NCBI GenBank assembly: GCA_018819405.1
Contig: JAHJQF010000001.1
Coordinates: 34,097 to 98,096 of the forward strand
Direction of reading: 5' to 3'
DNA length: 64,000 bases
DNA from: Patescibacteria group bacterium
Lineage (GTDB): Bacteria; Patescibacteriota; Patescibacteriia; UBA1558; GWA2-36-10
Shown here: one piece after another, positions 4,420-37,741 of the stretch
Layout of the letters: each line of letters starts with the position of its first letter
Position numbering within the stretch: position 1 is the stretch's first letter
Notes under the pieces: model-generated
Databases searched by the model: none
Seen by the model: only the letters and a program-made list of their open reading frames with translations
What the model was told of the DNA's origin: nothing
Made by a program: the position numbers and the translations under genes

Positions 4420-6174
4420 CTAGTCCGCTACTAATTGTAACTGACCATTTACTGACTTGATATGATAAAGCTCGTAGTCTATCTGATTGTCTTGCCAAGT
4501 GACAGCGACGGCCAATTCTTTTTGAGTATCCTCAGAAAAATATTGATCAAAGACAAAATTTCCCAGGGAATAAAAAATAGGTCTGTCTTTGTATATTTCC
4601 ACGCCTTGGACTACATGAGGATGATGCCCAATTATGACATCAGAGCCTACATCAATCAATTGATGAGCCATTTTTTGTTGGCTACTATTGTAATCAAGCT
4701 GATATTCCTCGCCCCAGTGAACATTGACCACTACCAGCTCTGCCTGCTCTTTGAGTGCTTTGATTAGCTCGCTAGCTTTGGTCATATCTATTTTGGAGCC
4801 AACTGTACTCAAACCAATCATAGCAACACTGCGTCCCTCTACTGACAAAACAGTAGCTGAACAGTCCGCCACTTGACCATCTTGGCAACCAGAAAAATCA
4901 AAATCCAACTGGCTGAGATTGTTTCTGGTTTCTTCTAGGCCTTTTTGACCCTGATCAGCCAAATGATTATTAGCCAGATTAAAAAAAGTAAAATATTTGT
5001 CTAGCTGGGAAACTATATTGGGCGCAAAAGCAAAATCATAATTTTTGATAGGGTCATAATGAGCGCCACTACTGGTAACTGCGCCTTCTAGATTGGCACT
5101 TACTAAATCATAGCCCACAAAAAAATCATCAGCTACCAAATTGCCAAAAATATAGTCCAAGCCTTTTTGGTCAATCAAGGTTTTGACATACCTATCTAGC
5201 ATCAGGTCACCTGTAAAAAGCATTTTGATAGGTCGTTGGCTGATAATTTTATTGCTACTAAAAAATCCCGTCACATAGCTGGTCGTACTGTCCAAATCTG
5301 GCTTGTCTGCTAATATAGCGGAATTGGAATTGTCCAAAAGATTAAAACTCTTGCCTGACAACTGAGCAAACTTTAAAATAGTATAAATAGAAGCTGGTGA
5401 ATCAACTGCTATATTGTAGATATTATCAAAGTCAAAATTATTTATGGTGGCAATAGACAGCTTGTCGTCTTTTTGAGCCTCTTGACTAGTCTGGTAATGA
5501 GAAAAATCTACACTAGCTAAAACTAATATTTTTTTGTCTTGGCTCAAATCATACAAAGACTGCGCCAATTGACTGGCTGATTGAGCATCCACAGTAGGCT
5601 TTAAGATAATAGGCAAAAACTTGGCCTTAGGAAATGTCTTTTTGATAAAAGAAACTTCACTAAAAATGGCGTGTTCATTTCTGATTGCCTCTTCATCAAT
5701 TGCTATGTCATTTGACTGAGTCAATCTCTTGGCTGTCTGACTATCATAGGCCAACACTCCGTATGGCGTCTGCCAGTCATAGGCTGAACTTATCATATCG
5801 CTATTTCCAGCCAAAAAATGATTGGGTCCAATAAGAATGACAGTATCAAAGTCCTGACCTTCCAAATTGTAAAAAAAGTTGGCTATCAAATCAGCGGCCA
5901 AAAGATGATGAGGAATAATACCAGCCACTACGGCCTCTGTGCTAGCTGGCTGTTTTATTTTGACAAATTTGTAAGCAATCTCAAAAAAATCTTTGTCTCT
6001 AGGAAAAGAATATTGGAATTCTTTGTCTAGCAACTCGTCGCTGTTTTGATTTTGTAGTTGAGCCAGTACCAAATCATTGCTTTTGAAATAAGCAAAAACA
6101 GAAGTTAATAAGCCTATCAATGATAGGCTTATTAAAACTAAAGAAAATATTAATCTGAGACTTGCTTTTTGCAT
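4420..6174 (-). CDS. Membrane-anchored fusion: Memo/AmmeMemoRadiSam-B-like domain + CapA (PGA_cap) metallophosphatase-like domain
   Basis: N-terminal TM helix. VVAGIIPHH...ILIGPNHF resembles the Memo family. The C-terminal half has LFTGDLMLDR...NVHWGEEY...IIGHHPHVVQGVE...YSLGNFVFDQ, typical of CapA-family proteins. Confidence 0.6.
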   Translation of the reverse strand: MQKASLRLIFSLVLISLSLIGLLTSVFAYFKSNDLVLAQLQNQNSDELLDKEFQYSFPRDKDFFEIAYKFVKIKQPASTEAVVAGIIPHHLLAADLIANFFYNLEGQDFDTVILIGPNHFLAGNSDMISSAYDWQTPYGVLAYDSQTAKRLTQSNDIAIDEEAIRNEHAIFSEVSFIKKTFPKAKFLPIILKPTVDAQSASQLAQSLYDLSQDKKILVLASVDFSHYQTSQEAQKDDKLSIATINNFDFDNIYNIAVDSPASIYTILKFAQLSGKSFNLLDNSNSAILADKPDLDSTTSYVTGFFSSNKIISQRPIKMLFTGDLMLDRYVKTLIDQKGLDYIFGNLVADDFFVGYDLVSANLEGAVTSSGAHYDPIKNYDFAFAPNIVSQLDKYFTFFNLANNHLADQGQKGLEETRNNLSQLDFDFSGCQDGQVADCSATVLSVEGRSVAMIGLSTVGSKIDMTKASELIKALKEQAELVVVNVHWGEEYQLDYNSSQQKMAHQLIDVGSDVIIGHHPHVVQGVEIYKDRPIFYSLGNFVFDQYFSEDTQKELAVAVTWQDNQIDYELYHIKSVNGQLQLVAD

Positions 6175-11668: not shown

Positions 11669-11743
11669 TGGCTCCGGGAGGGGGATTCGAACCCACGACC
11701 AATTGATTAACAGTCAACTGCTCTACCACTGAGCTATCCCGGA
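11669..11743 (-). tRNA. tRNA-Asn(GTT): tRNA-Asn (anticodon GTT), CCA encoded
   Basis: Manual cloverleaf fold: acceptor TCCGGGA/TCCCGGA, D-arm GCTC-AGTGGTA-GAGC, anticodon stem GTTGA/TCAAT with loop cTGTTaa, T-loop TTCGAAT, 3' GCCA. Confidence 0.8.
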
Positions 11744-11982
11744 ATGAATTTTTTAATAAATTGTCTACCCCGATAACTTTTTAGTTGTTTTTCTCTGGTC
11801 AGGGCTTCTTTTCTTGTTTTAATTTTTTCAGAATATATGATTTCCCAATTTCCATCAAATTTAGATGTATACCCAGAAAATATTTTTTTATTGTGTATAG
11901 TCAAACGTTCTGATAGATTTTTTGTTTGACCAATATAAAATTTATTTACTGTTTTGTTATAAATAGCATAGACAGTATACAT
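11734..11982 (-). CDS. GIY-YIG domain nuclease (UPF0213-like, 82 aa); 3' end overlaps the tRNA-Asn 5' end by 10 nt
   Basis: YAIYNKTVNKFYIGQTKNLSERLTIHN...REKQLK is a GIY-YIG motif. Confidence 0.7.
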   Translation of the reverse strand: MYTVYAIYNKTVNKFYIGQTKNLSERLTIHNKKIFSGYTSKFDGNWEIIYSEKIKTRKEALTREKQLKSYRGRQFIKKFIPG

Positions 11983-12003
11983 ATCGCTTTTCTAAATTTT
12001 ATA

Positions 12004-12045
12004 AACTGCTCTGCCTCCGCCAGCTGGCGGAGAGCTATCCCGGAA
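12004..12045 (-). repeat. Degenerate duplicate of the tRNA-Asn 5' portion (aactgctct...gagctatcccggaa) containing a hairpin
   Basis: 14-nt exact match gagctatcccggaa (12032-12045 vs 11731-11744) plus an upstream aactgctct match. The intervening ctccgccagctggcggag is an inverted repeat. Confidence 0.6.
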
Positions 12046-12048
12046 AAA

Positions 12049-12300
12049 TTATAAACTATTTTTTATCAAATTTTCTTTGGCTGTTTTGCTCCAAGTCTTT
12101 ATTTCCGCTTCTCTTTTCATAGCCTTGCCAACCGAAGCAAACTCCTCCCAGTAAATTATTTTAACAGGCCTTCTTTGTTTTGTATATTTAGCACCTTGAC
12201 CACTATTATGTTTGAGCTCTCTATCTTTTAAATTTGTAGTATAGCCTGTATAGATTGTGTCATCACTGCAACGGGCAAGATAACAATAATATTTTTTCAT
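12049..12300 (-). CDS. GIY-YIG domain nuclease (second copy, 83 aa)
   Basis: YYCYLARCSDDTIYTGYTTNLKDRELKHN...REAEIKTW is a GIY-YIG motif. Confidence 0.7.
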   Translation of the reverse strand: MKKYYCYLARCSDDTIYTGYTTNLKDRELKHNSGQGAKYTKQRRPVKIIYWEEFASVGKAMKREAEIKTWSKTAKENLIKNSL

Positions 12301-12319
12301 TTGTTTTGCTCAGTTGAAT

Positions 12320-12396
12320 TGGTAGCAGGGGGGAGAATCGAACTCCCGACCTCAGGCTTATGAGTCCTACGCTCTAACCAACTGAGCTACCCTGCC
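12320..12396 (-). tRNA. tRNA-Met/Ile2(CAT): tRNA with CAT anticodon (elongator Met or Ile2/lysidine), CCA encoded
   Basis: GGCAGGGTAGCTCAGTTGGTTAGAGCG...loop CTCATAA...GGGAGTTCGATTCTCCC...CCCTGCTACCA. Cloverleaf with one A-G mismatch in the anticodon stem. Confidence 0.7.
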
Positions 12397-12416
12397 TAAG
12401 AATAGATATAAAATTT

Positions 12417-12492
12417 TGGTAGCGGGGGCCGGACTCGAACCGGCGACCTTCAGGTTATGGGCCTGACGAGCTGCCAACTGCTCTACCCCGCG
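12417..12492 (-). tRNA. tRNA-fMet(CAT): Initiator tRNA-fMet (CAT), CCA encoded
   Basis: CGCGGGGTAGAGCAG...GTCAGGCCCATAACCTGAAGGTCGCCGGTTCGAGTCCGGCCCCCGCTACCA is nearly identical in architecture to E. coli tRNA-fMet (recalled), including an unpaired C1. Confidence 0.8.
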
Positions 12493-12515
12493 TCGTGAAA
12501 TAAATATAATTTTGG

Positions 12516-12592
12516 TGGTCGGAGTGGTGGGACTTGAACCCACGACCTTACGCACCCCATGCGCACGCGCTAGCCAACTGCGCCACACCCCG
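12516..12592 (-). tRNA. tRNA-Pro(GGG): tRNA-Pro (anticodon GGG), CCA encoded
   Basis: Acceptor CGGGGTG/CACTCCG, D-arm GCGC-AGTTGGCTA-GCGC, anticodon stem TGCGC/GCGTA with loop aTGGGGt, T-arm GTGGG-TTCAAGT-CCCAC. Confidence 0.75.
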
Positions 12593-12640
12593 CAAAATTA
12601 TATACTAAAGTATAGAGGGTTATGGCACAATTTACAAGTT

Positions 12641-12717
12641 TGGTGGACCCAAGGAGACTTGAACTCCTGACCTCTTCCATGCCATGGAAGCGTTCTAGCC
12701 AACTGAACTATGGGCCC
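12641..12717 (-). tRNA. tRNA-Ala(GGC): tRNA-Ala (anticodon GGC) with G3-U70 identity pair, CCA encoded
   Basis: GGGCCCATAGTTCAGTTGGCTAGAACG-CTTCC-aTGGCat-GGAAG...TGGGTCCACCA; a G3:U70 pair is present. Confidence 0.8.
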
Positions 12718-12810
12718 TATAAATAATTGCTTAATTGTCTAATTGATTAATAGTTTAATTGTTCTTATCAATTATCCTATTATACTATCAATCTATATAG
12801 CCTATTAATT

Positions 12811-12897
12811 TGGTACCGAGGAGAGGAATCGAACCTCCACGGGGTTGCCCCCACTGGATTTTGAGTCCAGCGCGTCTACCAATTCCGCCACCTCGGC
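12811..12897 (-). tRNA. tRNA-Leu(CAA): tRNA-Leu (anticodon CAA), long variable arm, CCA encoded
   Basis: GCCGAGGTGGCGGAATTGGTAGACGCG-CTGGA-cTCAAaa-TCCAG-TGGGGGCAACCCCGT-GGAGGTTCGATTCCTCT-CCTCGGTACCA. Confidence 0.8.
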
Positions 12898-28921: not shown

Positions 28922-30796
28922 TTGAAGAGAGGTAGAATCGTGAAGAGAACATTCTTGATTCTGTTGGCTCTGATCATAACGATCAGTAGCAATGTCCTTG
29001 CACAAGGACCAATCAGCGGATTTTACTACCCCGCTGATGAGATGGTCAATGACTGGCAGTACTATGCCAGCAGAAGCTTCTACGTCGACAACAACCACCT
29101 CGGAGCAGACGTAGATCTGGCGGAGGGAGTGGCGATCAAGGCCATAGCTAGGGGTAAAATCGTCTACTACGCCGGGGCATCATCCTATGGTGCTCTAGTG
29201 GTAGCAATTGAACACGAACTCCCAGAGGAAATAACTTTCCTTGGTGCTACTGGCGAGCTGAGAACGACCAGGTACGTACTCTCAATCTATGGACATCTAC
29301 GAAAAAGTGCAGAGAGAGTAGGCGCAGAACTGCCTTGGCAATACGGAGATATTGTCCAACAGGGTGACATAATCGGTTATGTAAATAATAGTAGTCATCC
29401 TGATGGAATTGCTCCAGACCCAAATGGTGATGGACTTGAACATCTGCATCTGGGAATTCGTCTATCAAATGAAGCAACCGCCAAAGCCCAAGACGGGAGC
29501 CTGTGGCTCAGAGGTTACAATAACAACTCTGGGATGCAAATTTACTTTACTAATCCGATACCCCTGGTATCTGGATTGGCACAATTTGCACAGTCTCCTT
29601 CATGGCAGACCGAAAATGGAGTTTCGTTGTCCTTCATGAACACGTACAATGCCTCTACTGTGGATGATCATCCCCTTGGGATGCCTTGGCAAAATACAGA
29701 GTACGGCTCTATGTATGTTCATGAAGTTAACAACATGCTCATCCAGGACTTTCAAGATCTTCGTGATGAGGGTGGTCCAAGTAATGGTTACTACAACCCT
29801 TACACGGCCATCATTCGTTACGATGATCCCTGGATGAGCCGAGAAGCCCGCTTGCTCAAAGAGGGGTTCTGGGATGTTTGGATGAATCGTCGTGGCTGGA
29901 TCACCTTTGGTTTTCCCACTACAGACGAGGAACTTGATAGTGGAAGAGTCTGGCAGACATTCCGTCGGCCTGGCTTCAACTACCAGAACAATCCCAATGA
30001 CTACAAAGAGTTCCACTTCCGTTGGGACTCTAACACCCAGAGCCTTGATATCCTGGATCAATACTACAACCCCGTAATGTTTTCGGAGTTGGTGGTCGAA
30101 CCAGGAAGTCCCTCTACTATGTTGGAAATGAGTGGAAACAACTACTCTGCTTCCGACATAGCGGAGTTGAAAGAGGCCACTGGTAATAAAGAGGTTACTG
30201 GCGGTGGTTCTATGTCCGAAAACAACCCATTCAAAGAGATGGGACTTTTGGACAGTAGCACGAAATCCCTGACTAATGGCGTCTACCACTCTGGTATTAA
30301 GGTAGCCGCTTTTGGTGAAGCTTTCGAGCTTGTAGAAGGGAACAGCTACGGCGATTTCTATGCCGTAGTCAATGGATCCATGGTACTCATGGACTCTTTT
30401 ACCATGAACGGCAATATGGTTATCTATATTGACGATTCACCCCCAGTAGGAGAGCTCCAGTTTGGCTATTGGACCATTTCGCCCAATCCTGGCAACGTTG
30501 GACAATCGCTCCATCTTGAAGGAGAAGTTTACAACGTTGGAGGATCACCAGTCACTATCTCGGAAGTAAAGATAGAGCTCATTGACCCTAGCGGCAATGA
30601 AGCCTACCATTACTCCGAGTACAACGTTGTTTTGCAACCAGGAAGCGGCTGGTATCAGTGGATGGAATGCTATCCATATATGCCAGGCAATCACACTGTT
30701 CGCTTTCGCGGACTGGTTGATGGGCAATGGACGACATTCTCTACGCACACTGTGTATGTCGAGGGTAGTCAAATAGTCTCTCATCTAGTCGACTGA
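28922..30796 (+). CDS. Secreted M23 (LytM-type) zinc metallopeptidase with a large C-terminal extension; GC-rich, probably acquired
   Basis: HLGADVDLAEG...YGHL...GDIIGYVNNSSHPDG...EHLHLGI is an M23 signature. Signal peptide; probable true start is GTG at 28940 after RBS gaggtag. GC well above its neighbours. Confidence 0.8.
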   Translation: MKRGRIVKRTFLILLALIITISSNVLAQGPISGFYYPADEMVNDWQYYASRSFYVDNNHLGADVDLAEGVAIKAIARGKIVYYAGASSYGALVVAIEHELPEEITFLGATGELRTTRYVLSIYGHLRKSAERVGAELPWQYGDIVQQGDIIGYVNNSSHPDGIAPDPNGDGLEHLHLGIRLSNEATAKAQDGSLWLRGYNNNSGMQIYFTNPIPLVSGLAQFAQSPSWQTENGVSLSFMNTYNASTVDDHPLGMPWQNTEYGSMYVHEVNNMLIQDFQDLRDEGGPSNGYYNPYTAIIRYDDPWMSREARLLKEGFWDVWMNRRGWITFGFPTTDEELDSGRVWQTFRRPGFNYQNNPNDYKEFHFRWDSNTQSLDILDQYYNPVMFSELVVEPGSPSTMLEMSGNNYSASDIAELKEATGNKEVTGGGSMSENNPFKEMGLLDSSTKSLTNGVYHSGIKVAAFGEAFELVEGNSYGDFYAVVNGSMVLMDSFTMNGNMVIYIDDSPPVGELQFGYWTISPNPGNVGQSLHLEGEVYNVGGSPVTISEVKIELIDPSGNEAYHYSEYNVVLQPGSGWYQWMECYPYMPGNHTVRFRGLVDGQWTTFSTHTVYVEGSQIVSHLVD

Positions 30797-31309: not shown

Positions 31310-31345
31310 GTCAAACAACAAAAAACACCCAAATCGGGTGTTTTA
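31310..31345 (-). terminator. Rho-independent terminator (minus strand) immediately after the GC-rich element
   Basis: Minus-strand RNA is AAAACACCCGAUUUGGGUGUUUUUUGUUGUUUG: stem CACCC/GGGUG followed by a U-run. Confidence 0.65.
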
Positions 31346-31683: not shown

Positions 31684-32274
31684 TTAATTTTCTACAATCA
31701 CCGATTGATTATCGGTTAAACGTCTTACTTTGCATTTATACTTATTTTCATAGTTTTTTATTTTTTCTTCAGTCTCTTTAGTATAGTGAGGGTAGATGAT
31801 AGTGTCAGTTAAATTCAAGCCTGTTAGATCTTCTAATTTGACGGTATTTATTTTTCTATCAAAATAATCCACGATGTTAATGTCTGGCCCTAAAACAACT
31901 CCGCCGCCACTGATACCTACAATAATTACTCCTCGATCAACTAGATGGGTGATAACTTTGTCAGCTCCGCTTTTTTTGAGATAATATAAAAGATAAAATG
32001 GATTGCCACCATTAATATAAATAACATCAAACTTTTTTAACTTATTTGGATTTTCAAACTCAATATCAAAAAATTTGACTTGCTTAAAACCCATATTCTC
32101 AAGCACCTGCTTTGCTAAAACCGCATGCTTATTTTCTTCTTTCCACTCTGCTGAGGCGGTGGTTATAATAGCCACAGACAAATTTTTAGATGCTTTAGGT
32201 AACAAAGTTAGCAACTTCTTTTTTAAAGTCTTATTTTTTTGAAACCCATAGGATGATAATATAATGTTTACCAT
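31684..32274 (-). CDS. S51-family peptidase E-like (type 1 glutamine amidotransferase-like fold) protein
   Basis: VIYINGGNPFYLL...GISGGGVVLG motifs. Confidence 0.6.
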   Translation of the reverse strand: MVNIILSSYGFQKNKTLKKKLLTLLPKASKNLSVAIITTASAEWKEENKHAVLAKQVLENMGFKQVKFFDIEFENPNKLKKFDVIYINGGNPFYLLYYLKKSGADKVITHLVDRGVIIVGISGGGVVLGPDINIVDYFDRKINTVKLEDLTGLNLTDTIIYPHYTKETEEKIKNYENKYKCKVRRLTDNQSVIVEN

Positions 32275-32368: not shown

Positions 32369-33031
32369 TCAACGCAATCTTAATGGCCAATCCAATTGAC
32401 CGACCACAAAATCAGCTTTAGCTGAAAGAACATTTTGGTACTTAGTATTTGGTCTTTTTACCTCCACAACTAGCGCCTCAGGAAATCTCGTCTTTACCTC
32501 ATCGATATTTTTTGGATTATCATCCAAAAAAATAATCGGCGAGGTACCTATAATTTCCATATAGCGCCACTTAACTCCTGATGTAACCGTGAAGCTGTGG
32601 CAAAGATCACTAAGCTTGCTTCCGACAAATTTAGCAAGCTGGAAATTTAGATCACCATGAGTTAATATAACCACCTCACAACCTGATCTTATCGCAGAAC
32701 CAAGAAAAAGCTCAGAATCATCGAAAACGTACAAATGACCTTTTTCTCTAACATATTTCTGCATTTCTACTACAACTTTTCTAATTCTGTCTAGCTCAAT
32801 TCTTTGACTTCTTTGAACCATCAGAAAAAAGTTAAACAGCAGGTTGTCTGGGGGAACTAAAGCGAGAGATGGATCAAGTAAATCCCTACTAATTCCACAC
32901 GCTTCACACAATTCGTACAGATCCCGATAAAGCGCATCGGAATCAAATACAGTTCTATCAAAATCGACAATAAGCAGTTCCTGACTACTTGTATTCATTA
33001 ACGAAATCCTCCTTTGTGGAACATCAAACAA
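32369..33031 (-). CDS. HAD-superfamily phosphatase/hydrolase (GC-rich island)
   Basis: Motif I IVDFDRTVF (DxDxT) and late FLDDNPKN motif. Confidence 0.7.
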   Translation of the reverse strand: MFDVPQRRISLMNTSSQELLIVDFDRTVFDSDALYRDLYELCEACGISRDLLDPSLALVPPDNLLFNFFLMVQRSQRIELDRIRKVVVEMQKYVREKGHLYVFDDSELFLGSAIRSGCEVVILTHGDLNFQLAKFVGSKLSDLCHSFTVTSGVKWRYMEIIGTSPIIFLDDNPKNIDEVKTRFPEALVVEVKRPNTKYQNVLSAKADFVVGQLDWPLRLR

Positions 33032-33080: not shown

Positions 33081-34127
33081 TTACAACTTGGATGTCTCAT
33101 GGATTCTCTCCACGAGTGTTGGAATGTATTTCTTCTTACACTCGCCACAAAGCGAGGTGCCGGAAACACATTCCTGATACATCCGCGTTGTTGCGTCGTA
33201 AGGTTGTAAAACCTCGGCGATCTTAAAGAAAGAACAATTATGTGGGTTACCACCTTTCCGACGCTGTTCTTCTGGAGTCGAACGACCACCGGAAAAACTT
33301 CGTCGCAGTTTACGCTCAATCTGCTCGCGAGTCTCGTCTAGAAGAATGAGTGATTTTGAGTTCTTCACGCTCATTCTCTGTCCAGGATCTTCCAAGCTTG
33401 GAAGAAGCAGGCGATACGAGTAACTCGGCAACGGAAGCTTAAGTTGACGAGCAATTATCTTCGTAGCTTCCGCGTGTGTGATCTGGTGGATGTCCGATAG
33501 GACAAGAGTCGGACGATTCGGAAAAAGTGTTGTCGGCAAAAGAAACGCTGCGGCTGTGATGGCAGGAACACGAAGCGTAGTAACAGAAACACCCTCGTCC
33601 CAACCATATAGTTGCAAAACCTTTCTTGCCGACAGACACGCTCCTGAACGATTGTCGAGAACTTGGAGTTCCCGACAATCTTGGTCAGAGAAACTCACTG
33701 AAGCATCTGGTAACGAATCACCTATAAACTTCAGATATGTCTCTCCAAACCTCGCCATCTCAATCTTTGCGTCATTGGCACTTAGAAGCCGATCCGCCTC
33801 GTACCCAGCAAACACGAAAATTGGTTGACCACCCTGTTGGACGAGCCAATACAATTCTCGCATTAGTGTGAGATGACCGAGGTGGAATGTCGCACCAGGA
33901 CGCATACCAACTAACACCGAGAACTGCTTTCCAATTACCATTGCTTTGAAGACAGGCAGTGGGTTTTGAAAAGCCCAAACACTGACACGAGCGAAGCCTT
34001 CCCAAATATCGGTAAAATTGTCGGTCAACGCCCCCGCTATTGTCTCGAGAGAGAATTGTTTAACTACGTTGGTTGCTTCAGCAGCAGCCAATATTGCTCT
34101 TTCTCCCAGCCAGTTTTCAAGCGCCAT
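33081..34127 (-). CDS. Divergent TrpRS-like class I aminoacyl-tRNA synthetase paralog with a C-terminal C-x21-C-x6-C-x2-C (putative Fe-S) cluster
   Basis: HIGH-like GMRPGATFHLGH, KMSKS-like SVKNSKSL, and C-terminal NCSFF...QECVSGTSLCGECKKK. Has an N-terminal extension of about 70 aa. GC-rich. Confidence 0.65.
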   Translation of the reverse strand: MALENWLGERAILAAAEATNVVKQFSLETIAGALTDNFTDIWEGFARVSVWAFQNPLPVFKAMVIGKQFSVLVGMRPGATFHLGHLTLMRELYWLVQQGGQPIFVFAGYEADRLLSANDAKIEMARFGETYLKFIGDSLPDASVSFSDQDCRELQVLDNRSGACLSARKVLQLYGWDEGVSVTTLRVPAITAAAFLLPTTLFPNRPTLVLSDIHQITHAEATKIIARQLKLPLPSYSYRLLLPSLEDPGQRMSVKNSKSLILLDETREQIERKLRRSFSGGRSTPEEQRRKGGNPHNCSFFKIAEVLQPYDATTRMYQECVSGTSLCGECKKKYIPTLVERIHETSKL

Positions 34128-34966
34128 TAGTGTCTCCTTTACTTGATTACGCGTGGAGAAAATGAATCATCTCCTCCAAGCGACTTTCCAGGTTGTTGTC
34201 TCTGACATACTGCTCGGCTTTCTGCATGTAGAATGCGGGAAAGTCCGGCATACCCCCATGAAGACTACTTCCCAGCGCCCAAAAACGAGCAACCGCCGCG
34301 AGAGTACTTTCATGCAACTGCTCTTCGGAAAGTGCATGATGGTATCGAAACATATCCCCGCTTTGTGTTACGATCCCCGCTTTCAGAAAAGACAAGGTTG
34401 TCGCCTCAGCCATCCTTACCCACAACTGCTGAAAGGATGGAGAGATGTAGTAACGCAGAAAATAACTGCGATACCACGGACATAGATGGAAGCGCGCGAG
34501 TACGGAGTCTGCCACCAAGTCTACACTTGTGGCAAAAATTCTTTCTCGCTTTACAGCCATCGCTGCCGCAAACGGCCCGATGAACGCCCCACCGACTTCC
34601 ATAACCACATCCCTATCTTTTTGCGAAGCCATGAACATAACATGAGGGTTATATACTTTGCCGGCGAAGTATCCTCCGAAAGTTTTCTGTCTACCATCAC
34701 TCACAAAATCATTTCTATTAAGTAAGTAGATGGTGACCGGATAACCCTCGAAGGACGATTGAATCCTTTGAATAGTGGTTGGTTGCGTGTGGATAAAGAG
34801 AAGATCAAGGTCACTCTCGGGATTTTGTTGGTTCAGCACGAAGCTGCCGTAGCACACCCAAAAGCTCCCGTCACCTTCTTGTGCTCCGATTTCGCTCGCA
34901 AGACATGCAACCGCTCGCGCAACAAAGTCGAAGTTTTCTTGCTTCATGAATGTTCTGTACACGTGC

Positions 34967-37101
<2,135 letters not shown>

Positions 37102-37320
37102 TTAGAGCTATTTTGCTTGACTTGAATTGTCAAGGTTCTGAAACACGAACCAGAATTTAATGTCACTGGTATGACATTTTATTTTACGATAAAACATACA
37201 TTTTGTCAAGCATATATATTCATATATTATTACAATATCCGACTAAGGTCAAACAAAAAAACACTATCAAAATAAATAGTATTTTTATAGGTAATCGGGT
37301 CATCCGATACTAAATTGTCG

Positions 37321-37411
37321 TGGCGGAGAGGACAGGATTCGAACCTGCGAGGGATTTTACTCCCTACTCGCTTTCCAAGCGAGCGCACTAGACCAACTAT
37401 GCGACCTCTCC
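37321..37411 (-). tRNA. tRNA-Ser(GGA): tRNA-Ser (anticodon GGA), long variable arm, CCA encoded
   Basis: GGAGAGGTCGCATAGTTGGTCTAGTGCG-CTCGC-tTGGAaa-GCGAG-TAGGGAGTAAAATCCCTCGC-AGGTTCGAATCCTGT-CCTCTCCGCCA. Confidence 0.8.
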
Positions 37412-37661
37412 ATGTTTTAATACGCTTTTCAAGTTTAGCCCGTAAATAAGCGCAGCGAATTTTACGGGCCGTGTGCACTACCCGCCTGCCACGGCTTCGC
37501 CGAAGGCGATGGCGGGCAGGGACCACCCACCGCCACAAATATCTAATTTAAATGAAGGCGGGGTCCCGCTACGCGGGATATGCGAACCTTCCTAGTGACC
37601 AACTATGTTTAGCCCGTAGCCAGACAAGCTATGCTTGGATGTGCTATGGGCCGACCTCTCC
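37412..37661. other. GC-rich hairpin-rich about 250-bp element abutting the tRNA-Ser 5' end, bounded by an 11-bp direct repeat of the tRNA 5' end
   Basis: cgacctctcca at 37403-37413 and 37651-37661. Hairpins GCCCGTAAA-14-TTTACGGGC, CCTGCC...GGCAGG, TCCCGC-tac-GCGGGA; gtttagcccgta is repeated. Confidence 0.4.
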
Positions 37662-37741
37662 AAAATATGCCTAAACAGTATAGATTTTATCATAATTTTA
37701 GTCAATACAAAAACCCCCGCCAAAAAGCGAGGGTCTGTAAA

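Follow-up and report, generated by a model that had tools for sequence, protein, structure and literature searches.

The window, a stretch of 64,000 nucleotides from contig JAHJQF010000001.1 of a Patescibacteria group bacterium, carries on its reverse strand a gene for a tryptophanyl-tRNA synthetase (TrpRS)-like protein within a putative six-gene operon. The earlier note had claimed a 348-aa TrpRS-like product, which is borne out by the open reading frame, the TrpRS fold and a homologous cysteine motif. The features of the locus, numbered from the first letter of the window and given in the direction of transcription, are as follows.

37321..37411 (-), tRNA-Ser(GGA), flank of the compositional island and possible integration site; the GC step falls here
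37181..37209 (-), promoter-like site TTGACA-17-TAAAAT upstream of the cassette; best of the scan, 11/12 matches
36067..37086 (-), TrpRS II-type tryptophanyl-tRNA synthetase, 339 aa; TIGR00233 248 bits against a cut-off of 176.75
34967..36055 (-), APH/choline-kinase-like kinase, 362 aa; Brenner motif CHGDPQPSN, VDWEW, GSSGARV...AVK
34147..34962 (-), Pol-beta-type nucleotidyltransferase (NTase) with Tam41-like fold, 271 aa; GTG start at 34962, NCBI start ATG at 34947
33081..34127 (-), TrpRS-like paralog, 348 aa; archaeal/eukaryotic-type class Ic fold, catalytic pocket remodelled
33873..33887 (-), HIGH motif FHLGH of the paralog (aa 81-85), read from the sequence
33363..33377 (-), KMSKS-equivalent loop RMSVK of the paralog (aa 251-255), from alignment to 3a04 and 3jxe
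33138..33236 (-), C298-x21-C320-x6-C327-x2-C330, putative [4Fe-4S] site in the anticodon-binding domain of the paralog, from sequence and alignments
32369..32998 (-), HAD-superfamily phosphatase-like accessory gene; motifs DFDRTV...DDNPKN read from the sequence
31684..32274 (-), Peptidase_S51 (PepE/cyanophycinase-like) accessory gene; Pfam E 1e-26
31322..31344 (-), terminator-like hairpin closing the putative six-gene operon, from a sequence scan

The four genes from the TrpRS to the paralog, referred to here as the cassette, are tightly spaced, with strong Shine-Dalgarno sites and one strong promoter. A canonical TrpRS, a kinase and an NTase had been described as sharing an operon with the paralog; all three are present at tight spacing, but the TrpRS is a close relative of the auxiliary TrpRS II of Deinococcus radiodurans (1yi8/2a4m; 450 bits, E 6e-134, roughly 65% identity by eye). 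The cassette is compositionally foreign in the Patescibacteria window, with a GC of 0.49 compared to 0.36 in the flanks, and no convincing att-like direct repeats matching the tRNA-Ser end turned up in a repeat search. No T-box, riboswitch or attenuator was detected upstream of the cassette by Rfam, which found tRNAs only in the window (gathering threshold) and the leader (E-value mode). There is no tRNA gene inside the cassette, and the tRNA-Trp genes near it at two loci (L001 and L005) are of the bacterial type with G73. Downstream of the cassette, the Peptidase_S51 gene was observed in 7 of 16 loci and the same HAD protein in L007, L011, L015 and L017, while other HAD genes adjoin variant cassettes.

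Fold, cysteine motif and catalytic pocket of the paralog

The paralog belongs to a family of about 70 members. It matched Pfam tRNA-synt_1b (E 6e-11), but its scores against the PRK12285 equivalogs of NCBIfam were 3-4 fold under the cut-offs (119 bits against 320, 115 against 451 and 113 against 478), and its TIGR00233 score of 85.8 bits was also below the cut-off of 176.75. The AF2 model (pLDDT 94) contains the class Ic Rossmann fold, the helical anticodon-binding domain and the archaeal-type N-terminal region. By Foldseek, its best fold match was the Aeropyrum pernix TrpRS 3a04 (TM 0.80), with human TrpRS at TM 0.79, in alignments of 353-359 columns. Two expectations had to be revised on these grounds. 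First, the proposed N-terminal extension of about 70 aa corresponds to the N-terminal region normally present in archaeal/eukaryotic-type TrpRS, with 359 columns aligned to 3a04. Second, the affiliation with Thermotoga-type TrpRS was not upheld; the paralog is closest to archaeal-type TrpRS, compared to a TM of 0.61 for the bacterial-type Thermotoga enzyme.

The cysteine motif C-x21-C-x6-C-x2-C was found as claimed, at aa 298/320/327/330 (nt 33138-33236), with a chance expectation in the paralog of ~1e-4. The earlier note had considered that these cysteines might not be conserved in homologs; they were invariant in 29 of 29 aligned sequences (21 family members and 8 archaeal TrpRS), and each position was filled in 94-97% of 33 family representatives in an HMM alignment. 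They match one for one the cysteines of A. pernix TrpRS, whose crystal structure contains a [4Fe-4S] cubane (PMC4027196). The motif given in the note for Thermotoga-type TrpRS was also correct for T. maritima: Han et al. report C-x22-C-x6-C-x2-C and generalise it to C-x(21-24)-C-x6-C-x2-C (PMC2954223). With the [4Fe-4S] TrpRS of A. pernix (3A04/3A05) and T. maritima (2G36), the paralog shares the class Ic fold, the HIGH motif, this cysteine spacing in the anticodon-binding domain and the GGR-T-EEQR-GG-P-C block around the cluster; unlike them, it lacks the C-terminal ~20 aa. Judged by alignment, the cysteine motif is of the [4Fe-4S] type and homologous to that of Fe-S TrpRS. The redox-sensing role that had been suggested for it gained no specific evidence in its favour.

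The block that contains the cysteines has been conserved in the paralog as in true TrpRS, as shown by predicted protein identities of 29-32% between paralog and canonical TrpRS, compared to 36% within groups. The close preservation of this anticodon-binding/Fe-S block speaks for continued binding of tRNA(Trp) by the paralog, which a purely small-molecule ligase would have no need of. Aminoacyl-tRNA synthetase (aaRS) scaffolds are known to work outside translation from dedicated gene clusters, as in MshC (Cys:GlcN-Ins ligase), cyclodipeptide synthases (CDPS) and SerRS-like amino acid:carrier-protein ligases, and the paralog resembles them in this respect. However, the anticodon-binding domain was lost or replaced in those enzymes, whereas the paralog has the TrpRS architecture in full, down to the Fe-S anticodon block. 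It also retains the HIGH motif, in contrast to CDPS, which have lost both HIGH and KMSKS and have no anticodon-binding domain.

The catalytic motifs showed a different pattern. The HIGH motif FHLGH is present at aa 81-85 as claimed, with H82 and H85 invariant and G84 nearly so across the 21 family members and 8 archaeal TrpRS, and all three invariant when the family was aligned alone. The KNSKS string that had been taken for the KMSKS motif does exist (aa 255-259, nt 33351-33365), but alignment to solved TrpRS places the equivalent loop at RMSVK (aa 251-255). R251, M252 and S253 are conserved across the family, compared to KMS[AS]S in canonical enzymes; without exception, the first position was Arg in the family (33 representatives) and Lys in canonical enzymes (78 representatives). 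Similarly, the P-x-G-x-D-Q-D-P...R..RD motif has become L-S-D-I-[NHK]-Q-x-T-H..E, in which Q215 alone was kept. A group-wise analysis of the same 33 family and 78 canonical representatives identified S78, Q96, Q191, P210, D214 (the GxDQ Asp), D216, P217, R220, R223 and D224 as canonical invariants that were lost or replaced, in addition to K251 changed to Arg; these residues set the paralog apart from the [4Fe-4S] TrpRS. Identity to canonical TrpRS in the catalytic domain was 19%, compared to 32% within groups. Together, these comparisons show a catalytic pocket that has, by its residues, been rebuilt. A changed Trp pocket had also been considered from the positions of human Tyr159 and Gln194 and was dropped, as both positions vary among canonical archaeal TrpRS too.

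A conserved anticodon block beside a rebuilt catalytic pocket might point to a tRNA-dependent transferase, comparable to CDPS or MprF-type enzymes, that docks Trp-tRNA(Trp) made by the partner TrpRS via the Fe-S domain and moves Trp to an acceptor prepared by the kinase and the NTase. A partner TrpRS of any type would fit the role of supplier, and CDPS provide a precedent for class Ic-like enzymes that use aminoacyl-tRNA (PMC9437257). However, strictly kept HIGH histidines and a conservative Lys-to-Arg change in KMSKS are expected for ATP chemistry, CDPS having lost both motifs, and the fusion of the paralog to an aminotransferase in some genomes suggests a free amino acid as substrate. We consider a transferase of this kind decidedly improbable.

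Distribution, co-evolution and partner enzymes of the cassette

The TrpRS, the APH/choline-kinase-like kinase, the Tam41-like NTase and the paralog form an obligate four-gene cassette that is horizontally mobile. All four families occurred together in 15 of 15 CPR loci examined, and the cassette was detected in 8 of 185,579 species genomes. Carriers include CP066697.1 and the contig with NCBI gene KKH39_00365. Actinoplanes (L021) and a high-GC contig (L020) have the four genes in a permuted order, and two further loci (L025/L026) contain them between flanking genes that look Gram-negative. Recombinase, T4SS and transposase genes neighbor the cassette in other loci. The NTase and kinase families match the paralog family in size, and nearly all of their members with readable context lie inside the cassette; in the 63-member kinase family, every member whose surroundings were read was in the cassette or in a permuted module. 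A Streptomyces homolog of the NTase (P0171) is solitary and was uninformative. We found no earlier description of the cassette in the literature searched.

Several versions of the cassette carry additional genes, often the HAD phosphatase and the S51 amidohydrolase. In L020, in the Actinoplanes protein P0190 and in P0219, the paralog and a HisC-like aminotransferase are fused into one protein; certain versions also encode a HisC/CobD-like PLP enzyme, an oxidoreductase and a methyltransferase. Genes found next to the cassette include HisC-like, IolG-like, TylF-like, LLM, HAD, MFS and EamA genes. Many loci, several CPR genomes included, contain the four core genes only, without an aminotransferase or oxidoreductase.

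Pairwise identities of the kinase, NTase and paralog correlate with r = 0.94-0.99, while the partner TrpRS is far more conserved than these three proteins (for example, 65% compared to 36%). As measured by these identities, the paralog was shown to co-evolve with the kinase and NTase, unlike a translational synthetase. It was never observed without a genuine TrpRS alongside, and at least three different TrpRS types fill this position across loci, suggesting that TrpRS activity as such is required. Because the cassette is so rare, a separate housekeeping TrpRS is likely to be encoded elsewhere in the genomes that bear it. This constant association with another TrpRS, a kinase and an NTase, and an evolution much faster than that of a housekeeping synthetase, further distinguish the paralog from known [4Fe-4S] TrpRS. 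Given scores far under the NCBIfam cut-offs, loss of the GxDQ Asp and KMSKS Lys and evolution as fast as that of the kinase and NTase, the paralog is, on sequence criteria, not a standard TrpRS.

It is nevertheless conceivable that the paralog is a second functional Trp-tRNA(Trp) synthetase, an auxiliary enzyme tolerant of stress or inhibitors that uses a [4Fe-4S] cluster for anticodon recognition as in T. maritima and A. pernix. The full-length TrpRS fold with both N-terminal and anticodon-binding domains, the HIGH motif and the conserved Fe-S/anticodon block would all be expected of such an enzyme; Fe-S TrpRS are active synthetases (PMC2954223), additional TrpRS-A of archaeal type are known from CPR bacteria (PMC5370408), and bacterial-type G73 tRNA-Trp genes are found close to the cassette in L001 and L005. 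Apart from the features that already exclude a standard TrpRS, this reading is opposed by the loss of about ten other canonical invariants, the genuine TrpRS always found adjacent, the aminotransferase fusion in Actinobacteria and a cassette without a tRNA(A73) gene, though archaeal-type TrpRS normally require A73. Overall, we regard a second translational synthetase as unlikely.

The closest described arrangement is that of Mukai et al. 2017, in which CPR bacteria and DPANN archaea carry TrpRS-A1, TrpRS-A2 or TrpRS-A-like proteins with an 'ORF1' (PMC5370408). As in the cassette, these are extra archaeal-type TrpRS homologs in CPR, tightly paired with an upstream ORF and present beside a bacterial-type TrpRS, and some TrpRS-A members are predicted to bind [4Fe-4S]. 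However, the two systems differ in three respects. First, the TrpRS-A operon has a tRNA-Trp(A73) gene, which the cassette lacks. Second, TrpRS-A1 and ORF1 are free of Trp, whereas the paralog (5 Trp) and the NTase, which has invariant Trp residues across its family, contain it. Third, the obligate upstream partner of the paralog is a Pol-beta/Tam41-like NTase, and the kinase is obligatory. An orthogonal archaeal tRNA-Trp(A73) pair was rejected as an explanation, given the cassette without tRNA and the G73 of nearby tRNA-Trp genes.

The kinase and NTase are distant from characterized enzymes. In the kinase, CHGDPQPSN (Brenner HxDxxxxN) and VDWEW (a D-x-E/DFG-like metal site) are invariant; its match to Pfam APH/Choline_kinase was weak (14.7 bits, under the cut-offs), a PDB profile search gave marginal matches only (E 0.02-0.4), and its weak NCBIfam and PDB matches were to APH(3'), APH(9) and choline kinase. 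The NTase likewise gave only marginal matches in a PDB sequence-profile search, so that fold comparison was needed. Its fold, with a G-S...D-x-D catalytic motif and a winged-helix C-domain, best matched Tam41 globally and not an ANT, while the N-domain resembles ANT(4'), ANT(3'')(9), MNT antitoxins and Hailong HalB.

Enzymes of the APH and ANT type are also well known for conferring resistance by drug modification. The cassette might be a multi-layer antibiotic resistance island, against a TrpRS-directed or another drug, that combines two target-bypass synthetases with an APH-like phosphotransferase and an ANT-like nucleotidyltransferase. In addition to these likenesses, the mobile context, the MFS or EamA transporters adjoining the cassette in L020 and L023 and the role of TrpRS duplicates as known indolmycin-resistance determinants (PMC9437257) would fit. 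However, resistance genes act independently and shuffle, whereas the kinase and NTase families are almost confined to the cassette and co-evolve tightly with the paralog. Nor would resistance account for a biosynthetic-type aminotransferase fused to the paralog, the oxidoreductase and methyltransferase genes that recur nearby or an NTase whose best global match is Tam41, and we judge it quite unlikely.

The neighbors of the cassette also raised the question of a toxin-immunity, abortive-infection or tRNA-repair module acting on tRNA(Trp) or TrpRS. HipT phosphorylates TrpS, and MenT NTases block tRNA. By analogy, tRNA(Trp) or TrpRS would be modified by the kinase, the NTase or both; the paralog would provide the adaptor for tRNA(Trp), and the antidotes would be the TrpRS and the HAD phosphatase. 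Such a module would be in keeping with the frequent mobile or defence-island neighbors (RM/Vsr, SLFN_AlbA_2, Abi_2, MazE and recombinases), the resemblance of the NTase N-domain to MNT antitoxins and HalB, its C-terminal winged helix and the conserved anticodon-binding block. However, none of the six operon proteins had a meaningful match in a PADLOC scan, indicating that the cassette falls outside the catalogued defence systems; the kinase motifs are of the small-molecule type, and we know of no precedent for APH-fold RNA kinases. As the metabolic fusions and neighbors (HisC, IolG-like, LLM and TylF) would also be left unexplained, this appears very improbable.

Proposed function and significance

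We conclude that the paralog is a neofunctionalised archaeal-type TrpRS paralog in a rare mobile cassette, and that its role is probably non-translational. The non-canonical role suggested in the earlier note is thus favoured because invariants have been lost, scores fall below the cut-offs, the paralog evolves fast together with the kinase and NTase, a genuine TrpRS is its constant companion and aminotransferase fusions occur. The cassette may encode a pathway of its own, devoted to a small molecule or linked to tRNA(Trp), in which the co-encoded TrpRS would confer immunity or act as supplier. We give this reading, whose chemistry is inferred, somewhat less than an even chance. Many four-gene-only loci, the conserved anticodon/Fe-S block and the likeness of the APH and ANT folds to drug-modifying enzymes were counted against it.

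In the proposed pathway, the paralog would still use ATP, through HIGH and the RMS loop, to activate Trp or a Trp-like amino acid, for which the fused or adjacent aminotransferase may be the source in some versions. It would then hand on the amino acid, to tRNA(Trp) or to some unconventional acceptor. The kinase would phosphorylate a hydroxyl and the Tam41-like NTase would then nucleotidylate the phosphate, an order proposed from the folds by analogy with the Kennedy pathway and cobamide nucleotide-loop assembly. The product could be a Trp-linked phospho-nucleotide resembling the Trp-AMP (or Trp+ATP) state of TrpRS. The co-encoded TrpRS would act as an insensitive immunity copy or a dedicated supplier of Trp-tRNA, and the HAD and S51 enzymes may trim or detoxify intermediates.

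The gene content resembles established pathways that couple a kinase to an NTase, namely the Kennedy enzymes ChoK/CCT, the Tam41 CDP-DAG synthase and the cobamide loop enzymes PduX-CobD-CbiB-CobU/CobY-CobC, in its choline-kinase-like kinase, Tam41-like NTase, HisC/CobD-like PLP enzyme and phosphatase. By analogy, it may mirror their logic: phosphorylate, attach by amide, nucleotidylate, dephosphorylate. However, sequence similarity to those kinase and NTase pairs is marginal, and the amide step would fall to the TrpRS paralog, which has no precedent in these pathways. A puromycin-like (Pur10/Pur4) reading of the oxidoreductase and aminotransferase pair was weakened, as puromycin synthesis uses a DegT-type aminotransferase and the one here is HisC/CobD-like.

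A second TrpRS beside pathway genes is a hallmark of inhibitor producers and resistant strains. The cassette shares this arrangement with the self-resistance and auxiliary TrpRS, Streptomyces TrpRS1 (indolmycin) and D. radiodurans TrpRS II-NOS; it differs in having neither NOS nor known indolmycin or chuangxinmycin genes, and in a partner TrpRS whose type varies between loci. More specifically, and on balance rather doubtfully, the Fe-S paralog, kinase and NTase might assemble a tryptophanyl-(amino-alcohol)-phospho-nucleotide, a mimic of Trp-AMP or Trp+ATP that poisons the TrpRS of competitors or hosts, with the co-encoded TrpRS as the immunity gene.

Paralogs of aaRS have proved fruitful both for new chemistry and for antibiotic discovery guided by resistance. 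In the cassette, the entire TrpRS scaffold, with its Fe-S anticodon block, has taken on a new specialisation and is tied to three partner enzymes, and the set of four moves between bacteria that are only very distantly related. A cultured Actinoplanes carries a version of the cassette (WP_089299331.1 locus), which makes the question of its role directly testable. If the product is a TrpRS-directed antimetabolite, both the inhibitor class and the immunity TrpRS would be new. Should it be the proposed Trp-AMP or Trp+ATP mimic, CPR would have been assigned a chemical weapon for the first time, and natural aaRS inhibitors would gain a new class, synthesised by a repurposed duplicate of the enzyme that the class inhibits. 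Alternatively, the paralog may charge tRNA(Trp) with a noncanonical amino acid, or may repair or modify this tRNA; the cassette would then be relevant to how plastic the genetic code is in nature, and to the role of [4Fe-4S] clusters in TrpRS, which is still unexplained. In each case, the carriers include genome-reduced CPR episymbionts, organisms thought to have almost no secondary metabolism.

The paralog and its place among TrpRS proteins

The gene under study encodes a TrpRS-like protein, hereafter the paralog, identical to NCBI KKH39_00365 from a 1.04-Mb contig of a Patescibacteria bacterium. The HIGH motif FHLGH claimed by the earlier note is present at residues 81–85, and four of the six cysteines (298, 320, 327 and 330; nt 33138–33236) have exactly the C-x21-C-x6-C-x2-C spacing it described, for which the chance expectation is ~1e-4 given the cysteine content of the protein. 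The string KNSKS, read there as a degenerate KMSKS, does occur at residues 255–259, but the true equivalent is RMSVK (251–255), four residues upstream, which HMMER places opposite KMSSS and KMSAS of solved archaeal TrpRS. The supposed N-terminal extension was not borne out, as ~70 residues before HIGH are common to archaeal/eukaryotic-type TrpRS and the predicted structure superposes over its full length.

Pfam gave a weak tRNA-synt_1b match, and the paralog scored 113–119 bits against the NCBIfam archaeal-type TrpRS models (PRK12285 series; cut-offs 320–478) and 86 bits against TIGR00233 (cut-off 177). The closest solved relatives by sequence were A. pernix TrpRS (3a04, E 9e-20) and P. horikoshii TrpRS (3jxe), with T. 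maritima TrpRS a far weaker match. AlphaFold, run on 33 family members, gave a confident model (pLDDT 94, pTM 0.92) that matched 3a04 (TM 0.80) and human TrpRS (0.79) best, compared to 0.61 for T. maritima TrpRS. The four cysteines line up with those of the A. pernix enzyme, in which crystallography shows a [4Fe-4S] cubane (PMC4027196), and they fit the published T. maritima motif C-x22-C-x6-C-x2-C, generalised to x21–24 (PMC2954223). The earlier note was therefore right about the Fe-S motif, but the affiliation is archaeal-type rather than Thermotoga-type. In T. maritima the motif lies within the anticodon-binding domain, beside anticodon C34 (PMC2954223).

Some 70 family relatives (37–85% identity, 342–370 aa) were found in Patescibacteria, including Woesebacteria and Berkelbacteria; beyond them, identity to the paralog drops abruptly to ~27% (archaeal TrpRS). 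Aligning the best 150 of ~1000 archaeal-type TrpRS relatives, recovered by an exhaustive profile search, to the family profile gave three groups. Group A, the family of the paralog (33 representatives), replaces GxDQ by S-D-I-[NHK]-Q and KMS by RMS, and almost always has four cysteines, while the canonical group C (78 representatives) has GxDQ plus KMS[SAK]S and four cysteines in only ~55%. Group A has lost or exchanged the canonical residues S78, Q96, G183, Q191, P210, D214, D216, P217, R220, R223, D224, K251 (to R) and S255; H82, G84, H85, Q215, M252, S253, K273, G280/281, G292 and K331 are kept. Membership among bona fide TrpRS fails on three points (family score, KMSKS lysine, GxDQ aspartate), the paralog is not a standard TrpRS, and we consider a plain second TrpRS unlikely. 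Paralog and canonical enzymes share 19% identity in the catalytic domain (32% within groups) and 29–32% in the Fe-S/anticodon block, residues 273–335 (36% within groups). The anticodon-binding/Fe-S module is thus about as constrained as it is in genuine TrpRS, while the catalytic pocket has been rebuilt.

Group B (11 representatives) is a second archaeal-type TrpRS paralog family, with G-[NT]-E for GxDQ, RMS for KMS and four cysteines (P0187, P0188, P0192, P0205, P0206, P0210, P0214, P0230, P0269, P0294). Other archaeal-type relatives (P0279, P0296, P0207/P0220, P0284) are fusions to a class IV aminotransferase, chorismate mutase, PheRS B3/4 domain or TPR repeats.

A four-gene cassette, its conservation and its variants

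The operon in the window comprises:

37209–37181, minus strand: promoter-like TTGACA-17-TAAAAT, first element
36067–37086, minus strand: partner TrpRS
34967–36055, minus strand: kinase
34147–34962, minus strand: NTase (GTG start backed by a Shine-Dalgarno site and homologs)
33081–34127, minus strand: paralog, 348 aa
32369–32998, minus strand: HAD-like phosphatase
31684–32274, minus strand: Peptidase_S51
31344–31322, minus strand: terminator-like hairpin, end of operon

The kinase and NTase are co-operonic with the paralog, as had been claimed, the gaps among the four core genes being 4–19 nt. The neighbour described as a canonical TrpRS is a genuine one (TIGR00233, 248 bits), but it is closely related to the auxiliary TrpRS II of D. 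radiodurans (1yi8/2a4m, 450 bits; at most 257 bits to other TrpRS). The kinase, whose database matches were only marginal, carries invariant GSSGARV... (12 further residues not shown) and VDWEW motifs of APH/choline-kinase type.

The same four genes, in the same order, recur at all 15 Patescibacteria (CPR) loci examined, except that at one of the 15, L011, the contig ends too early to include the TrpRS. The NTase and kinase families (72 and 63 matches) are of the same size as that of the paralog and essentially confined to the cassette wherever context was readable. Pairwise identities of kinase, NTase and paralog across loci correlate at r = 0.94–0.99, and all three evolve fast, at 36–40% identity between the window and L005 compared to 65% for the far more conserved partner TrpRS. 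Since it co-varies with the kinase and NTase and outpaces the partner TrpRS, the paralog behaves like a pathway enzyme rather than a translational synthetase. Its association with the kinase, the Tam41-like NTase and a genuine TrpRS is obligate and co-evolving.

The paralog is carried by only 8 of 185,579 species-representative genomes, and the cassette is horizontally mobile. The four genes of the window stand out sharply in composition (GC 0.47–0.51 against 0.30–0.38), as an island directly downstream of tRNA-Ser(GGA). Flanks are unrelated between CPR loci and often contain serine recombinases, T4SS genes, RadC, XRE/S24 regulators, an RM system, a Schlafen-like gene or a transposase. A toxin, defence or repair module is a very improbable identity for the cassette. 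On an 897-kb Patescibacteria contig (L009), two tRNA-Ser genes (4646–4733 and 12674–12764) bracket an extended cassette running from TrpRS II through S51, and T4SS genes precede it, which suggests an integrative element. Around the Berkelbacteria cassette (L001, CP066697.1; 4198–4743 and 11359–12639) lie aromatic-amino-acid-flavoured genes: FeeM-like N-acyl amino acid synthase, ThiF, Pyridoxal_deC decarboxylase, YbdK-type carboxylate-amine ligase, EPSP synthase and tRNA-Trp.

Accessory genes at CPR loci include a specific HAD phosphatase (5/16), Peptidase_S51 (7/16), a HisC/CobD-like PLP enzyme paired with an IolG-like oxidoreductase (L007, L009, L015) and a TylF-like methyltransferase (L009). 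Outside CPR, a high-GC contig (L020) and Actinoplanes (L021/L022, WP_089299331.1) share the order HAD, NTase, paralog fused to a HisC-like aminotransferase (a Rosetta-stone link), TrpRS II-like, kinase and luciferase-like oxidoreductase, beside an MFS transporter or XRE/TPR regulator. L025/L026 have kinase, NTase, paralog (42% identical, cysteine motif intact) and a third-type TrpRS, plus a HAD gene and transposase, among Gram-negative-type flanking genes. At L023/L024 the kinase and NTase are followed by an orphan 332-aa protein and then a standard TrpRS, and an EamA transporter is also present. The Woesebacteria cassettes (L004/L014) begin with a standard TrpRS of bacterial type instead of TrpRS II. 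Given these differing TrpRS types and gene orders, the cassette requires a TrpRS activity of whatever lineage, and the NTase–paralog and TrpRS/kinase adjacencies are preserved.

The orphan protein (CxxC...CxxC; L023 10932–11930, L024 2680–3678) occupies the position of the TrpRS-like gene, has no match in Pfam or PDB, and may be the counterpart of 'ORF1', the class I aaRS-like protein described by Mukai et al. A solitary distant homolog of the NTase (25% identity) in Streptomyces (L018/L019, 6684–7538) adjoins PAP2 and CyanoTRADDas_TM genes and has neither a TrpRS nor a kinase in its vicinity.

Elsewhere in the window, an unannotated GC-rich stretch of ~250 nt (37430–37700, minus strand) separates the PEP synthase terminator from tRNA-Ser(GGA). 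The stretch has a promoter-like site of its own (37705–37677), opens with words (GGAGAGGTCG, CATAGTTGGTC) that also begin the neighbouring tRNA-Ser, is moderately structured (z −2.3), has no match in ARAGORN or Rfam, and may be a tRNA remnant or small RNA. A second compositional island (28922–30796, plus strand; GC ~0.47 against 0.27–0.31 around it) encodes a secreted-looking 624-aa Peptidase_M23 protein and was probably also horizontally acquired. Six tRNA genes (Asn, Met x2, Pro, Ala, Leu) cluster at 11669–12897 (minus strand).

A possible pathway and related systems

We tentatively propose a dedicated non-translational pathway in general, with the following chemistry as a working model. The paralog would still activate Trp, or an amino acid resembling it, as the aminoacyl-adenylate. 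Kinase and NTase would act in series, phosphorylating and then nucleotidylating, by analogy with choline kinase/cytidylyltransferase, Tam41 and the cobamide loop enzymes PduX-CobD-CbiB-CobU/Y-CobC, and together the enzymes would yield a Trp-linked phospho-nucleotide similar to Trp-AMP or Trp+ATP. The TrpRS encoded alongside could serve as immunity copy or Trp-tRNA supplier; that the cassette is itself a resistance island seems rather unlikely. Because the anticodon block is conserved, we give substantial weight to a part for tRNA(Trp), whether as acceptor or as donor. A tRNA-dependent transferase is distinctly improbable.

Among known proteins the paralog is closest to the A. pernix and T. maritima Fe-S TrpRS enzymes, and the nearest described system is the CPR/DPANN TrpRS-A + ORF1 operon, which likewise combines an archaeal-type TrpRS homolog, an unknown upstream ORF and a bacterial TrpRS (PMC5370408). 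However, that operon carries tRNA-Trp(A73) and is Trp-free (PMC5370408), whereas the cassette has no tRNA and contains Trp residues; tRNA-Trp genes near it have G73. In function the cassette recalls aaRS paralogs recruited to make metabolites (MshC, CDPS) and aaRS genes that confer self-resistance (PMC9437257). A literature search found no prior description of it.

The paralog finding is real, and the cassette is more than a lone paralog. It adds a new form, spread across phyla, to the 'aaRS paralog + resistant aaRS' theme; the kinase/Tam41-like NTase pairing is unprecedented and the Fe-S anticodon module is retained. Since a cultured Actinoplanes carries a version, the function of the cassette is testable.
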